From: a virus
Lineage: Duplodnaviria; Caudoviricetes
DNA length: 64,000 nucleotides
IMG/VR virus record: IMGVR_UViG_3300033463_000012
Reading direction: 5' to 3' (one strand)
Below are positions 152-54,613 of this stretch, piece by piece (positions within the stretch are counted from its first letter, which is position 1; the number at the start of each line of letters is the position of its first letter). The notes below the pieces were generated by a model, which saw only the letters and a list, made by a program, of their open reading frames with translations, was not told the origin of the DNA and ran no database searches. The position numbers and the translations under genes were made by a program.

Positions 152-183
152 TTGGTGGTTCTCCTCTAAATGGTTCTAGGTAG

Positions 184-4179: not shown

Positions 4180-6258
4180 TCATCCAAATACCGATATCGG
4201 TGTTGCAATACCTAGTTCTCTTTTGTCTTTCTTCAATGCCCCGACCAATCCAGGAAGGACGGAATCCATGAAATATCCCATCAGGGCGTCATCGAACCAT
4301 TCATCATTCATTCCATTGAAGCCATCTTTTATGACATTCTTGATCTGATTTCCGGAGTTTTCCAGTGTATTTATCGCTTCGGCCTCCATCATGCCTAGTG
4401 AGGTCGCCGAATTCAGAACACCGCCTTGAGCCAAGAATTCAGGTTCAATCCCTGGTTTTGCAAGAAATTGTCTGTATGTGGATCCTTTTGAGTTTCCATA
4501 GAACCAGAGGCCTTCGTTCTTCGCCCTTGACCACATCGGGCTTTCCTTTGTGTACAGATAGCCACCGGCGTCCTTGACCTCTCGCAGATTGTGTGAAGCG
4601 AGGATTTCGTTCAACACTGCCTTGTATTCGGGTTGAACGCCTATGCCGAAATACGGAAACACGTGGCTTACATCTTCGTCTGGTTTGTTGTTTCCTATGT
4701 AGGTAGGTTTGGTTTCTCCTATCACCAGCTTGTTCTTGTCCAGCCAATCCTTCATCTTCTTTCTGTAAGGATATCCATTCTTCGCTTCCTCTTCCATCTT
4801 TTCCGTGGTTTCGGGAACGAATTGAGTTTCCGCGTCATTTATCAATCTCTGCCAGAATTCAAGGGCGGCTTCATAGAGGTCCTGCTGGTATTGAGTTCCC
4901 TGCTTGTCCTGAATCTTTTCCAGCAGTGTGTCTTCGAACCATTGAGATGTCCAATCCACTGGCCAGGTTTCCGGAGCGTTCACATTGCCGAGACCTGCAT
5001 AGAATGTACCTATAGCCCGACCAGCTCTCTTTATTGCCTCTTCGGCGTCATCCGTGCTCATGCCTTCGGCGAACAGGCGCTTCTTCAGCTCGTCAGGACC
5101 ACCTTCCTTCATGATGATCTGCGCTCTTTCCAAGTCTTCGTCGGTCAACCCGATTCTGTCCAATGTGGCTTTGTCGGGTTTGGAAAGGAGTCCAGCGCCG
5201 AACAAATCCCACAACAGGCCTATGCCTTGAATCGCTTGACCTATTCCAGGAATGAATGCCGCTGCACCGGTGACAAGGTTTATTGCACCATTTATTCTTC
5301 CCGCCAGTTGTTCAGTTTCCGCTGCAGCCGAATTGTATTTCCCGATTTCGGCCATCTTCTCCAGGTCGAGATTGGTTCCAGTCGTGGTTGCTGCAGTTTC
5401 TCCGGCAAAAGTGGAGGACATGTCACGTTCGCCTGCGGCCTCGACTGCAGCGTTCTTTGCATTAAGCAGCTGATAGGCACCGACACCTGCCTGAACGACT
5501 GCCCCTGCCTTTCCTGCGAATTTCCCGGCTGTTCTTCCTACCTTTGTGGCCTTGGATGCAGCTTGAGCGGCCTTCGATGTCTTTGCCGCATTTGCCAAGT
5601 TTTGTCCAGCGTTTGTCTTCAGGAATCTGCTGGCTCCTGCTTTGATCGCCTTGCCTAGTGCAATGTTGATGCCTATGTCAGCGGCAAGACCTAATGCACT
5701 GAAGTCATCTCCGCCTGATTCCTGAGGTGCCCCTGAACCACCGCCTGAAGACGGAGCCGGCATCGGGGTTGTGGTTCCAGACCCGCCAGGAATAGCGGTG
5801 GCTGCAGCTGCTCCCGCGGCCGCTCCTGCTTCTTCCTTGTTCAGCTTTCTGCTCAGATTAGCTTGTCTGTCAAGGTCAGCTTGTTTCTCTTCCCTCTTGT
5901 CCTGGGCGATGAAGTGAGCCAACATCTTGCCCATCTTGTTGTCAATCTCGCCCAGCTTTCCATAGACCTCGTCCAGGAATTCATCACCTGAATCGAGAGG
6001 AGCATATCGTTCATCCTGATATTGAACTTCCTGTGTGGCTATTTGTCTTTCGAATTCAGCTTCTCTGTTTTCACGAGCCATCAAGGCGGATTTGTTGCCA
6101 CGAGCGATTGCAGCATCTTCACCACTGCCACCTGACATAAAGTCATGTGCCGTGCTCCTGTTCACCGAATTTTCAGAAGCATCATCGGACGACGCGGCAC
6201 TTCTTATGCCTTTTACGGCTGCATGAGTGGCTGCTGTTCTCGCTATGAATCCTAACAT
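4180..6258 (-). CDS. Tape-measure/baseplate-hub-like protein
   Basis: Ala/Gly-rich helical segments, hydrophobic AFIPGIG stretch, CTAAAT upstream. Confidence 0.55.
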   Translation of the reverse strand: MLGFIARTAATHAAVKGIRSAASSDDASENSVNRSTAHDFMSGGSGEDAAIARGNKSALMARENREAEFERQIATQEVQYQDERYAPLDSGDEFLDEVYGKLGEIDNKMGKMLAHFIAQDKREEKQADLDRQANLSRKLNKEEAGAAAGAAAATAIPGGSGTTTPMPAPSSGGGSGAPQESGGDDFSALGLAADIGINIALGKAIKAGASRFLKTNAGQNLANAAKTSKAAQAASKATKVGRTAGKFAGKAGAVVQAGVGAYQLLNAKNAAVEAAGERDMSSTFAGETAATTTGTNLDLEKMAEIGKYNSAAAETEQLAGRINGAINLVTGAAAFIPGIGQAIQGIGLLWDLFGAGLLSKPDKATLDRIGLTDEDLERAQIIMKEGGPDELKKRLFAEGMSTDDAEEAIKRAGRAIGTFYAGLGNVNAPETWPVDWTSQWFEDTLLEKIQDKQGTQYQQDLYEAALEFWQRLINDAETQFVPETTEKMEEEAKNGYPYRKKMKDWLDKNKLVIGETKPTYIGNNKPDEDVSHVFPYFGIGVQPEYKAVLNEILASHNLREVKDAGGYLYTKESPMWSRAKNEGLWFYGNSKGSTYRQFLAKPGIEPEFLAQGGVLNSATSLGMMEAEAINTLENSGNQIKNVIKDGFNGMNDEWFDDALMGYFMDSVLPGLVGALKKDKRELGIATPISVFG

Positions 6259-15650: not shown

Positions 15651-15669
15651 GTTCTACTCCTTTTGTGGT

Positions 15670-21933: not shown

Positions 21934-22023
21934 GCTCCAGGGAGCCATTCTGAGACAGTTTCTGATGAGGTAGCTATAACTTACTAGCTTCTTGAAAAAT
22001 GGCTCTGATGGCTTCGTAGAGCC
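21934..22023. repeat. Dispersed palindromic element, copy B
   Basis: GGTAGCTATAACTTACTAGCT (21969-21989) identical to 49536-49556. Confidence 0.8.
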
Positions 22024-22453: not shown

Positions 22454-22858
22454 CTAGTCCACGGAGTCAATATTGTAGTCGTGACGCTTGTTGGCTTCGT
22501 CCACGTTGAAGCCGAATTCCACGGTAAGGATCCCCAGAGCCAACTTAACGGAAGCGGGCTCCTTCTTCAGGGTCTTCATCTCGGTGTCGAACTGATTCAA
22601 GGCGAAGGACCGCTGATCATCCTGAACCTTGACATAGAGCAGACCATTTTCGGTCCAAACCTGAATGTCTTCCTTCGGGATGCCTGGGACGATGAACTTG
22701 AAGGAAACCTTGTCGTCCGCAGATTCACGTTCCACCTTGAGAATCTTGTTTTCCACGTTCACCTTGGGAGGTTCCGCATTCCAAGACCTGCCGGAAGATT
22801 CGTTCAACAGCTGAGCGGCCAAACGTTCCAAATCTCTAACATCGAACAGACTGCACAT
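22454..22858 (-). CDS. Small heat shock protein (Hsp20/alpha-crystallin domain)
   Basis: VPGIPKEDIQV..ENGLLYV, RSFAL, LALGILTV. Confidence 0.85.
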   Translation of the reverse strand: MCSLFDVRDLERLAAQLLNESSGRSWNAEPPKVNVENKILKVERESADDKVSFKFIVPGIPKEDIQVWTENGLLYVKVQDDQRSFALNQFDTEMKTLKKEPASVKLALGILTVEFGFNVDEANKRHDYNIDSVD

Positions 22859-22905: not shown

Positions 22906-22922
22906 AGCTAGGACTATGCCAA
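22906..22922 (-). promoter_or_regulatory. Sigma54-type -24/-12 promoter upstream of hsp20
   Basis: TTGGCATAGTCCTAGCT, GG-N10-GC spacing. Confidence 0.55.
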
Positions 22923-22949
22923 CTGAATATGTTCCAAAATAAAACTCAT

Positions 22950-23053
22950 GGTAGGATACGGGACCAGGAATCAACTACAAGGAGGCTTTCGTCGATTCTG
23001 GGAGCTATGTCACGGGAGAACCACCAACCCGCTCCCGTATCCTAAACTTCTCT
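22950..23053 (-). ncRNA. Candidate structured small RNA
   Basis: 12-bp closing helix 22952-22963/23033-23044, inner hairpins, ATTATATT promoter element near 23061-23068. Confidence 0.55.
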
Positions 23054-23095
23054 TATCTTCAATATAATTCAATATCGAGACAGGAGAAAAATTTC

Positions 23096-24061: not shown

Positions 24062-24134
24062 TGCCGTCGCCGAGACTTGAACTCGAAATTTACCATTAAA
24101 AGTGGCAAGTGATAACCTATTTCACCACAACGGC
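24062..24134 (-). tRNA. tRNA-Lys(UUU)
   Basis: Cloverleaf, anticodon arm TGCCA-CTTTTAA-TGGTA, T-loop TTCAAGT. Confidence 0.9.
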
Positions 24135-24141
24135 TTTTGAA

Positions 24142-24455
24142 TACCCCGTGGAGGACTCGAACCTCCGACCAGCGGTTTAGCGTCCAGCATCATGTTTCCA
24201 TGACCACCCTTTCGGGCTTGCTGGCTGGACTATTTCTTCGGCGTTTCAGCCGACGTGCGTATAGTCTCTACGGATCCCTGGTCTTGGTTTCCTCGGAGTT
24301 GTCGTGTGTTGTTGGCACTTACGATTTTCTCCGATACAGCACGTTTCATTTCATGTGTTCTTTTCTTGAGAGGATTTGATTTGACCGCCATCTCAATTTT
24401 CCACACGAACGCTCCAGTTGAAGACCGCTGCTCTATCCAGCTGAGCTAACGGGGC
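24142..24455 (-). tRNA. tRNA-Arg(UCU), interrupted by a group I intron
   Basis: Exons 24455-24421 and 24180-24142 join to give GCGGT-CTTCTAA-ACCGC and a complete cloverleaf. Confidence 0.9.
24181..24420 (-). mobile_element. Group I intron, 240 nt, no ORF
   Basis: P1 with U.G splice pair (CTT|CA..TGGAG), R element GTAGAGACTA, S element AAGAAATAGTCC, terminal G. Confidence 0.88.
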
Positions 24456-26109: not shown

Positions 26110-26184
26110 TGACTCCTAGGCCTGTGGTTTTCTCTGAGTTTAATATAATAAAAATAAATGAGAGTGGTCAAAGAAAAATGAAAA

Positions 26185-47800: not shown

Positions 47801-47833
47801 TTCAGAACCACAGATGATCACAAGGAGGATCAC

Positions 47834-48510: not shown

Positions 48511-48578
48511 TAGAGCCAGGCCAGAGAAGAGTTCGAAAGCCTAGCAAGAACCACCAAGAACCTAGCCAGGAGGCACCT

Positions 48579-49492: not shown

Positions 49493-49590
49493 CTCCCTGG
49501 CTGCATAGGATGAGTTTTGAGACATTTTCTGCAAGGGTAGCTATAACTTACTAGCTATCAAATAAATGTCTCAGAATGATTCCCTGGAGA
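49493..49590. repeat. Dispersed palindromic element, copy C
   Basis: TGAGACATTT/AAATGTCTCA arms around TAGCTA-TAACTTAC-TAGCTA. Confidence 0.8.
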
Positions 49591-49674: not shown

Positions 49675-49706
49675 AAGCAAAGCCCAAAAGAACCACGGAG
49701 GCGCAC

Positions 49707-50999
49707 ATGAACACAAAGGAACTTTTCGAAGCCATCAAGAACACCCCCGGTCACGTGGAAAAGTCCAAGCTCGTCCACGCGAACATGACTGACGGACTCA
49801 AGGGCATCCTCGCCTACACCTACACTCGGGACCGCTACCACGTTCGCTCCACCAACGTGACCATCCCCGCTCCCGGCACGGACGACCTCATCTCCGTTTT
49901 CAACACCTACCCCAAGGCCACTCTGGACGACCTGAAGGCGGGGAAGATTTCCGGCAACGCGGGCATCGCGGCGGTCGAAAAGGTCCTCTCCACACTGGAC
50001 GCCTACAGCCAGCAGGTCTATCTCGCGGTCCTCGATCATAACCTCAAACTCGGGGTTTCTTCCTCGGTCATCAAGGATCTCGGCCTCAACGACAAGTTCG
50101 AAGTCGCGCTCGCCGCCAAGCTGCAGGACCAGAAGGGTTTGGACGTGTTCGACGGCAACTGGTTCGTCTCCCGCAAGCTGGACGGTTGCAGGTGCGTGGC
50201 GGAAGTCAACTGCGAAACTCGGGAAGTGAAGTTCCTTTCTCGCCAGAACAAGGAATTCACCACCCTCTCCAACCTGGTCGAGCCCATCCTCGCCAAGTTC
50301 CCCGAAACCGAAGGTATCTTCTATCTCGACGGGGAAATCTGCCTGGTGGACGACGAAGGAAACGAGGACTTCAAGGGGGTGATCTCCGAAGTCAGGAAGA
50401 AGAATCACACCATGGAACATCCCGCCTACAACGTCTTCGACCTGCTCACCTACGACGAGTTCTGGGGCACGGTGAAGTCTCCCATCTTTTCCCTCCGCCA
50501 CAAGGCCATCATCGATCGCGAGTTCGATGGGGTCTTTGTCCGCCCCCTCAAGCAGGAACGGGTCACCTCGGAAGAACAGTTCCTCAGGTGGAAGGAAGAA
50601 GTCAAGAAGGGTGGCTGGGAAGGCCTGATGCTCCGCAAGGACGCTCCCTATCTCTCGGGTCGCACGAAGGAACTCCTCAAGGTCAAGGACATGCAGGACG
50701 CCGAATACGTGGTCGAAGACGTGGTCCGCGGAGACATCTCCTACGCTGAACCGGGTCGCGGCCAGGTCACCTTCACGGACGTCATCAAGGCGCTCGTCAT
50801 CTCCCACAAGGGGGACAAGGTTCAGGTTGGCTCCGGTCTTTCCAAGGAACAGCGGCTGGAATGGGCGAAGAATCCTGCGGCCATCATCGGCAAGACGATC
50901 ACGGTCCAATACTTCGAAGAAACTCAGGCGAAGGACGGGACCTACTCGCTCCGCTTCCCCATCCTCAAGATTGTCTACGAGAACGGGCGCAACTGCTAG
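49707..50999 (+). CDS. gp30: ATP-dependent DNA ligase
   Basis: KLDGCR, LDGEI, VFD, EGLMLR, LLKVK, VGSG, SLRFP. Confidence 0.95.
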   Translation: MNTKELFEAIKNTPGHVEKSKLVHANMTDGLKGILAYTYTRDRYHVRSTNVTIPAPGTDDLISVFNTYPKATLDDLKAGKISGNAGIAAVEKVLSTLDAYSQQVYLAVLDHNLKLGVSSSVIKDLGLNDKFEVALAAKLQDQKGLDVFDGNWFVSRKLDGCRCVAEVNCETREVKFLSRQNKEFTTLSNLVEPILAKFPETEGIFYLDGEICLVDDEGNEDFKGVISEVRKKNHTMEHPAYNVFDLLTYDEFWGTVKSPIFSLRHKAIIDREFDGVFVRPLKQERVTSEEQFLRWKEEVKKGGWEGLMLRKDAPYLSGRTKELLKVKDMQDAEYVVEDVVRGDISYAEPGRGQVTFTDVIKALVISHKGDKVQVGSGLSKEQRLEWAKNPAAIIGKTITVQYFEETQAKDGTYSLRFPILKIVYENGRNC

Positions 51000-54525: not shown

Positions 54526-54613
54526 CAGGGAGGGCCCTAGGAGCCACTTTCTGACTTTGTAAGTATAACTTACTAGCTTACCCTGAAAATGGCCCCTTGG
54601 CTCTCCTATGAGC
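54526..54613. repeat. Dispersed palindromic element, copy D
   Basis: TATAACTTACTAGCT core at 54564-54578 followed by GAAAATGGC. Confidence 0.7.

Follow-up and report, generated by a model that had tools for sequence, protein, structure and literature searches.

What kind of element separates the tRNA region of this phage from an hsp20-like gene, and does its complementarity to the Shine-Dalgarno (SD) sequence and to early-gene leaders reflect its function? The DNA analysed here, referred to as the window, is a stretch of 64,000 nucleotides taken from an IMG/VR record that covers 132 kb of a T4-like rumen phage and is approximately 66% complete. An earlier note, made from the window alone, had described a 12-bp helix closing two inner arms and had proposed a trans-acting antisense repressor of early phage mRNAs or, if the plus strand were transcribed, a decoy for a leader-binding protein. 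The decisive support for the structure is comparative, namely an MFE fold common to six lineages and strong covariation. The element is a real, conserved structured RNA on the minus strand, with covarying helices and two invariant loops.

The folded RNA is a three-way junction whose components are listed in Table 1. The closing helix, P1, is as the earlier note had described it, with 12 bp joining 23044-23033 to 22963-22952 (on the plus strand TAGGATACGGGA at 22952-22963 pairs with TCCCGTATCCTA at 23033-23044), and it encloses two hairpins, P2 and P3. The CCTCCTT seen in one loop is AAGGAGG on the plus strand at 22979-22985 and reads CCUCCUU on the minus strand, and the reported minus-strand promoter element is present as a ATTATATT box at 23061-23068(-). 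The minus-strand fold has a predicted energy of -39.4 kcal/mol and a z of -2.6, compared with a z of -1.3 for the plus strand. In the fold of the window, part of the P2 loop is predicted to pair with itself, and a kissing interaction of the two loops (GGUGG with CCUCC) is possible, with a central U.U mismatch. If the terminal A in the U-A pair of P1 stays unpaired, A-CCA would result in the window.

Table 1. Features of the structured RNA locus, candidate target leaders and related loci. Positions are those of the window unless a contig is named.
Feature	Position	Strand	Remarks
Structured RNA core, three-way junction, 93 nt	22952-23044	-	MFE fold; six lineages; covariance model
P1 5' strand, UAGGAUACGGGA	23033-23044	-	Pairs with 22952-22963
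P1 3' strand, UCCCGUAUCCUA	22952-22963	-	CCA directly after
P2 hairpin, G-CGGG-UUGGUGGUUCU-CCCG-U	23012-23032	-	Loop 23017-23027
Variable linker, 10 nt, GACAUAGCUC	23002-23011	-	Between P2 and P3
P3 hairpin	22964-23001	-	Loop GAAAGCCUCCUUGUA at 22976-22990; CCUCCUU at 22979-22985
TATATT box and purine-rich start region	23055-23070	-	Putative own promoter of the RNA
Imperfect palindrome GTTTTATTTTGGAAC, then sigma54-type -24/-12 box TGGCATAGTCCTAGC	22907-22945	-	Between the RNA and the hsp20-like gene
Sigma54-type box in relatives	L005:3909-3955; L046:~190-235; L048:~465-510; L049:~2915-2960; L051:2400-2445		
hsp20-like gene	22454-22858	-	PHROG 432, E 2.5e-6; weak Pfam HSP20 matches; constant neighbour 3' of the RNA
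Endonuclease-like gene, split into ORFs of 212 aa and 66 aa	23096-23938	-	AT-rich, 36% GC
tRNA-Lys	24062-24134	-	ARAGORN
Candidate target leader, GGAGAACCACCAA	152-164	-	SD plus spacer before a GTG start, behind a ATTATATT promoter; duplex with P2 loop -17.6 kcal/mol
Candidate target leader, AGAACCACCAA	48547-48557	+	13 nt before AGGAGG; duplex -17.5 kcal/mol
Candidate target leader, AGAACCAC	47804-47811	+	Follows closely after an early promoter
Candidate target, DNA ligase leader, AGAACCAC fused to GGAGG	49689-49696	+	Duplex scoring
sRNA-like loci of Bacteroidaceae/Bacteroidales	L075:2840-2990; L086:4205-4370; L058:3370-3530; L088:2500-2660		About 11 more GTDB loci
Repeats D1/D2	21948-22015; 49515-49582; 54537-54604; also 6293, 21921, 41183, 49488	both	

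The element was found in six lineages of related rumen phages (the window, the L005 type, L046, L047, L048 and L049), and in all six it lies directly upstream of the hsp20-like gene and on the same strand. Relatives of the Hsp20-like protein, three of them 75%, 65% and 62% identical and two remote, are encoded on rumen metagenome contigs. Close relatives were absent from 50,697 phage records searched by blastn, and none was found in IMG/VR with the Hsp20-like protein, with its alignment or with an exact 32-mer; a scan of JGI metagenomes with a 25-mer gave no match, the 25-mer being too specific (a 19-mer did match). Each lineage independently gives P1, P2, an optional extra hairpin and P3 as its MFE fold, and the core lengths across the six are 89, 89, 100, 103, 92 and 90 nt. 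A covariance model (R1) built from four copies picks up L048 at an E value of 5e-12 and L049 at 2e-7, as well as L005, L046 and L047. It identifies one copy in the window and no second, and the element is present as a single copy in the genome.

The stems of P1 and P3 are entirely rewritten between lineages with their pairing kept, such that P1 is GCAGGCGCGAG/CUCGCGCCUGC in L048 and GUAGGUUGGCGGGUCG/CGACCCGCCACCUAC in L049. In an alignment that was fitted to model R1, and is hence biased to the structure (the independent MFE folds agree with it), 15 of 26 pairs are changed on both sides, 91.5% of the cells pair compared with 34-54% when the partners are slid, and the observed covariation score was reached by none of 500 shuffles. 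Double-sided changes are seen at six of the ten modelled pairs in P1, where 98% of cells are paired, and at nine of the eleven modelled pairs in P3. Different behaviour is seen with P2, in which 19 nt are identical in all six lineages, stem and loop alike, and the core of the P3 loop, GCC(C)UCCU, is also kept in all six; with these sequences identical while the P1 and P3 stems are rewritten, the loops are under selection. The linker is variable, with a longer segment in L046 and L047, a GAUC-UUCG-GAUC hairpin in L048 and UCUAAUU in L049, and P1 has an N-CCA after it in three lineages (the window, L005 and L048) that is missing from L046, L047 and L049. G.U pairs occur in P2, P3 and the outer stems on the minus (hsp20) strand only, and the RNA is assigned to that strand for this reason. 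On the plus strand they would become A.C mismatches, and the plus-strand decoy is therefore disfavoured.

Several other identities were considered for the element. Rfam 15 contains no match to it, either at the gathering score in the window or at E values up to 10 in the segment 22700-23300. Neither ARAGORN, which called five tRNAs that are all elsewhere, nor the Rfam models detected a tRNA or tmRNA at the element, and a tRNA-like or tRNA-Sec identity was rejected by ARAGORN and by manual folding. P2 may resemble the 3' end of 16S rRNA, and the word UGGUGGU the complement of ACCACCA tRNA ends. Small protein-coding ORFs on the plus strand (38-39 aa, 22929-23067) were also rejected; a conserved small ORF is excluded by core lengths whose differences are not multiples of three, and the substitutions in the stems are compensatory.

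The genes surrounding the element are all on the minus strand and are ordered, in the direction of transcription, Band_7 gene, 76-aa gene, intron-interrupted tRNA, tRNA-Lys, endonuclease-like ORFs, the element and the hsp20-like gene. The endonuclease-like gene, which has a weak match to a C2HC zinc finger and matches to RAP/MTES_1575 nucleases, sits between tRNA-Lys and the promoter box of the RNA in the window but is absent there in the relatives L004-L010, in which tRNA-Lys occupies this spot. It is probably a broken or frameshifted insertion of the homing-endonuclease type. Among the tRNA genes, we note that the one at L005:3355-3665 (equivalent to ~24142-24455 in the window) has its anticodon loop interrupted by ~245 nt; the insert in L005 holds a 57-aa ORF, and the interrupted gene is not called by ARAGORN.

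Every lineage has a TATATT box 10-35 nt upstream of P1, which reads TACATT in L047 and TATGTT in L049 and takes the form of an extended -10 (TGnTATATT) in L048. Just upstream of the box, L048 and L049 carry a tRNA and then an intrinsic terminator, so the RNA is probably made from this promoter of its own. A strict sigma70 scan gave no match at the box in the window, where the inserted endonuclease-like gene has taken the place of the -35 region.

A second conserved block is located between the RNA and the hsp20-like gene. It consists of a palindrome (consensus TGTTTCA-TTT-TGRAACA, and TGTTTCA-TTT-TGAAACA in L051) followed by TTGGCAY-N5-TNGCT, the canonical sigma54 -24/-12 arrangement, which is kept in seven lineages, L051 included, at ~45-60 nt before the hsp20 start. 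In the 132-kb record this box has two matches compared with 1.8 expected, the other being inside a coding region, and no sigma54 activator domain (PF00158) was found in the ~66% of the genome that the record represents. The more distant lineage L051 carries the palindrome, the sigma54-type box and the hsp20-like gene and lacks the RNA, which is therefore a separable module and not part of the sigma54-type promoter. The fixed site of the RNA before this promoter and the hsp20-like gene had not been foreseen in the earlier note, and nor had the use of P2 as a shared module, described below. A sigma54-type promoter before a phage sHSP gene is unusual in itself.

The complementarity to leaders reported previously holds in every instance. 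GGAGAACCACCAA occurs in the window exactly twice, at 23015-23027(+) and at 152-164(-), and the P2 loop UUGGUGGUUCU plus CC is an exact 13-nt complement of the leader at 152-164; the 11-nt complement is AGAACCACCAA at 48547-48557, and the core recurs as AGAACCAC at 47804 and 49689, as AAAACCAC near 26125, and as AAACCAC near 15665 and 22876. There are ten copies of AGAACCAC in the window compared with 2.1 expected, a number reached by none of 100 shuffles; the 13-mer with up to two mismatches is present four times against 2.0 expected, and is not enriched when taken alone. The whole 132-kb record contains 15 copies of AGAACCAC, seven of them in 5' leaders directly behind TTATTATATT-type early promoters, and five of these seven leaders have the motif 0-13 nt ahead of an SD of the GGAGG type. 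GGAGG is also the word to which the P3 loop is antisense, and a two-loop binder needs just this order of motif and then SD.

Duplexes of the P2 loop were scored against positions -45 to +3 of 183 called genes. Values of -12 kcal/mol or lower are found at 11 of the 183 leaders, compared with 2.7% of intragenic control windows and with 2.4 +/- 2.1 leaders for permuted loops, an approximately fourfold enrichment (p about 0.01) in which the leaders are not independent observations because they are repeated, partly duplicated promoter-leader cassettes. The leader matches, which the earlier note had proposed to weigh against chance, are thus enriched over shuffled loops, and early-promoter leaders account for nine of the 11 best duplex matches; leaders rich in A and C would nonetheless match a loop rich in G and U to some degree, whatever its function. 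AACCAC is present in 13 leaders (2.4 expected) and GAGAAC in 21 (2.2 expected), and by these counts the commonest RBS word of the phage is complementary to GUUCUCC, the 3' half of P2. Among relatives, the motif is kept in the ligase leader of L092, whose ligase is 90% identical, despite an altered spacer. In the L048-sample lineage no early promoter precedes the ligase (L093), which therefore offers no leader to compare, and the single early-type leader seen in the diverged L049, GGAGAACGUG, has the GGAGAAC part of the motif only. The leader of the hsp20-like gene is not among the top duplex matches.

The interpretation that we favour, with a probability of about 0.4, is that the RNA is a dual-loop antisense repressor of early mRNAs, because it is built like the c4 antisense RNA of phages P1 and P7. 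A minus-strand RNA with a core of ~90-100 nt would be produced from its own TATATT-box promoter and would act by base pairing, like c4. The P3 loop would cover the GGAGG of the SD in a target mRNA, and the P2 loop, extended by the CC that begins its 3' stem strand, would bind the (GG)AGAACCAC(CAA) word present beside the SD or upstream of it in many early-promoter leaders. Pairing of the P2 loop with the leader would confer specificity, and the translation of early messages would be damped as the RNA accumulates. The parts of the original antisense proposal that stand are the structured RNA on the minus strand, its invariant loops and its complementarity to a motif enriched in TTATTATATT early leaders; the leader statistics are modest. 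Other points against such a repressor are that the constant partner of the RNA is the hsp20-like gene and not any early gene, and that the P2 loop is in part predicted to be occupied by its own pairing.

In c4, a P1 stem carries two stem-loops, of which loop b' acts on the RBS and loop a' on the sequence upstream of it for specificity, and RNase P releases the RNA by cleaving where P1 starts, at its 5' end (PMC5320573). The RNA described here resembles c4 (Rfam C4, RF01695) in its closing P1 stem with two stem-loops, in having one loop that would face the RBS and another that would face upstream sequence (here the enriched candidate leader sites), and in being phage-encoded on the same strand as its neighbours. 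The N-CCA after P1 in three of the six lineages is a hint toward RNase P maturation of the c4 type. The Rfam C4 model does not match the segment 22700-23300 even at E up to 10, and for this reason the RNA is not a member of that family. It also differs from c4 in that its host phage is a lytic T4-like myovirus rather than a temperate P1-like phage, and no target operon of the icd-ant type is located downstream. Moreover, the loops of c4 vary and set the target, whereas in this RNA it is the stems that vary and the loops that stay fixed. It represents a new and well-supported family, for which the proposed mechanism is of a known kind.

Comparisons can be drawn with three other systems. T4 encodes rnaC and rnaD (species 1 and 2), small stable structured RNAs of unknown function in its tRNA region. 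The RNA described here is, like them, a small structured RNA beside the tRNA genes of a T4-type phage; it differs in its promoter-like box and in the terminator that parts it from the tRNA in two lineages. T4 also shuts off its early mRNAs with RegB, which cuts within GGAG, and RegA, which binds RBS regions. The outcome proposed here would be similar, with early messages silenced at or in the SD region, although RegA and RegB are proteins and the RNA would act by pairing. Finally, sRNAs with C-rich loops, including RsaE/RoxS in Firmicutes and CcsR/Cuckoo in Alphaproteobacteria, pair with the SD through an exposed pyrimidine CCUCC loop on a hairpin. P3 would resemble these in presenting a CCUCC hairpin loop to G-rich ribosome-binding sites, but the folds and families are unrelated and those RNAs are cellular rather than phage-encoded.

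A more complex picture emerges with P2, which extends beyond this phage family. Scans with the exact P2 core identified 22 IMG/VR contigs, 16 metagenome contigs and 21 GTDB genomes, among which some high-GC matches fall in coding sequence and are due to chance. The GGG-UUGGUGGUUCU-CCC hairpin is present in 37 distinct contexts, which comprise contigs of unrelated phages, contigs from metagenomes and genomes of ruminant-gut Bacteroidaceae. In 18 of the 37 the stem is extended by 4-11 further uninterrupted pairs of differing sequence, each such extension having a chance probability of ~2%. The outer stems covary freely, and in several contexts there are G.U pairs on the UUGGUGGUUCU strand. The IMG/VR matches to a 17-mer are genuine copies of the hairpin module, and those to a 16-mer of the P3 loop are chance.

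In L011 (180-300, -) and L012 (2080-2200, -), the hairpin begins 4-5 nt after a TGnTATAAT extended -10 and is followed by a short linker and an intrinsic terminator, forming a stand-alone unit of ~95 nt from promoter to terminator downstream of a Metallophos gene. A terminator-like setting, in which the hairpin is followed by a U-run, is seen in L013-type contigs, L016 and L060, and in L067 a T-run is present a few bases further on. L013 has three hairpins with the UUGGUGGUUCU loop (oriented positions 5907, 8348 and 10935) among small early genes, of which two hairpins precede a U-run and resemble terminators, and many early leaders in this type of phage read AAAACCACC-ATG or AGAACCAC. When the hairpin contigs outside this family are pooled, the anti-leader signal is weak (p = 0.007 for 6-mers, 0.14 for 7-mers and 0.05 for 8-mers). 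We also note that L013, together with L015, L020, L021, L025 and L026, has SD-less, A/C-rich leaders (AAAACCACC-ATG and AAAAACC-ATG) and TATTATATTA-type promoters.

An sRNA-like gene in which the UUGGUGGUUCU hairpin is the first is present in at least 15 species of ruminant-gut Bacteroidaceae/Bacteroidales. A second hairpin, of ~100 nt, comes next, with a U-run after it in the L075-type copies, and the gene is flanked by unrelated genes (FtsX/MFS in one case and TonB-BlaR1/outer-membrane barrel in another). The FopS and GibS sRNAs of Bacteroides were considered as candidates for this RNA and rejected, as they have single-stranded 5' seeds (PMC11697453) and are in Rfam. No neighbour gene is common to the hairpin contexts, no Rfam family holds the P2 hairpin, and its sequence was not found in the literature searched.

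The occurrence of P2 in unrelated phages and Bacteroidaceae points to a partner more universal than the leaders of this phage, and a phage-specific target would not easily explain it. It is possible, though we think it unlikely, that the hairpin serves to recognise some widely conserved cellular protein or RNA (such as the ribosome, polymerase, an RNase or the tRNA 3' end), in which case the phage RNA would use P2 and its SD-binding loop to recruit, sequester or mimic that partner. This would best explain the spread of the module over 37 contexts, 18 of them with at least four further uninterrupted pairs, as well as the freely covarying outer stems with G.U pairs on the same strand, the presence of the hairpin in promoter-to-terminator units, terminator-like hairpins and the Bacteroidaceae sRNA-like gene, and the lack of a common neighbour. 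The invariance of the P2 stem as well as its loop also suggests that the whole hairpin is read. Set against this are the absence of the hairpin from Rfam and from the literature searched, and the occurrence of loop-complementary leaders in this phage group and in the L013 type, which base pairing fits at least equally. A role in base pairing could itself account for the module if GGG-UUGGUGGUUCU-CCC were a portable seed hairpin with which many unrelated phages and some gut Bacteroidaceae pair with translation-initiation leaders of the (A/G)AACCACC type, and which would here be joined to an anti-SD loop to give a two-seed, c4-like repressor that times early-gene shut-off in a lytic T4-type phage. 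We offer this broader scheme tentatively and regard it as doubtful.

In six of six lineages the RNA immediately precedes the hsp20-like gene and shares its strand, which raises the question of whether it is instead a cis-acting leader of that gene. The anti-SD loop would then fold onto the hsp20 SD ~90 nt downstream in read-through transcripts, and Hsp20 synthesis would depend on the internal sigma54-type promoter, or on heat to melt the contact. There is no canonical terminator between the RNA and the gene, the P3 loop can by inspection pair with 5-6 nt of every hsp20 SD, and sHSP genes are classic targets of RNA thermometers (ROSE and fourU elements). However, the SD lies ~80 nt past P1, outside the structure and beyond a conserved promoter-like box, rather than being paired along with the start codon inside a hairpin as in an RNA thermometer, and no thermometer family in Rfam matches. 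The pairing of loop and SD is generic, with no covariation beyond GGAG; L051 shows that the box and gene are separable from the RNA; and the invariant P2 hairpin and its presence elsewhere would be left unexplained. A cis-acting role therefore seems improbable.

If the RNA mainly served to form or stabilise an end, by terminating transcripts, being processed or insulating the sigma54-controlled gene from the tRNA/early unit, the leader complementarity would be incidental. A U-rich tract begins 1-8 nt after P1 in all lineages, a U-run follows P2-type hairpins in several other phages, and the element is in the tRNA region with N-CCA after P1 in three of the six lineages, an RCCA 3' motif being one that favours RNase P cleavage (PMC12710915). 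A terminator scan called no intrinsic terminator at the element, where P1 closes an insert of 65 nt ahead of the U-rich tract. Against such a role, that tract belongs to the palindrome that is also present in the RNA-less L051. The CCA is absent in three lineages, and a terminator needs neither invariant loops of 11 nt and 7 nt nor a three-way junction, and we consider this role quite improbable. Least credible by far is action at the level of DNA, with the conserved blocks as upstream activator sites for the sigma54-type promoter ~60-130 bp downstream, since, although this distance fits typical enhancer spacing, protein sites conserve sequence whereas P1 and P3 keep complementarity, with G.U pairs, through full sequence change, L051 has the promoter without the element, the copies of P2 in other contexts have surroundings that befit an RNA, with a promoter ahead or a U-run after, and no sigma54 activator was found in the 132-kb record.

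To our knowledge, few regulatory RNAs are known in lytic T4-type phages, in which early shut-off is ascribed to proteins. With a conserved, covarying RNA and a clear set of candidate targets in the leader words of the GGAGAACCAC type, RNA-based timing of phage gene expression becomes directly testable, and the P2 hairpin module may mark a larger, unrecognised class of phage RNAs.

Among other features of the genome, we note that an ATP-dependent DNA ligase gene (49707-50999, +) follows the third AGAACCAC leader. In relatives its product has the Pfam domains DNA_ligase_A_M and DNA_ligase_OB_2, and thousands of relatives are 45-48% identical. Two repeat families, D1 and D2, which have a GTAGCTATAACTTACTAGCT core with TTCTGAGACAGTTT before it, are intergenic and occur on both strands, and one copy is also present in L092, upstream of the ligase promoter.
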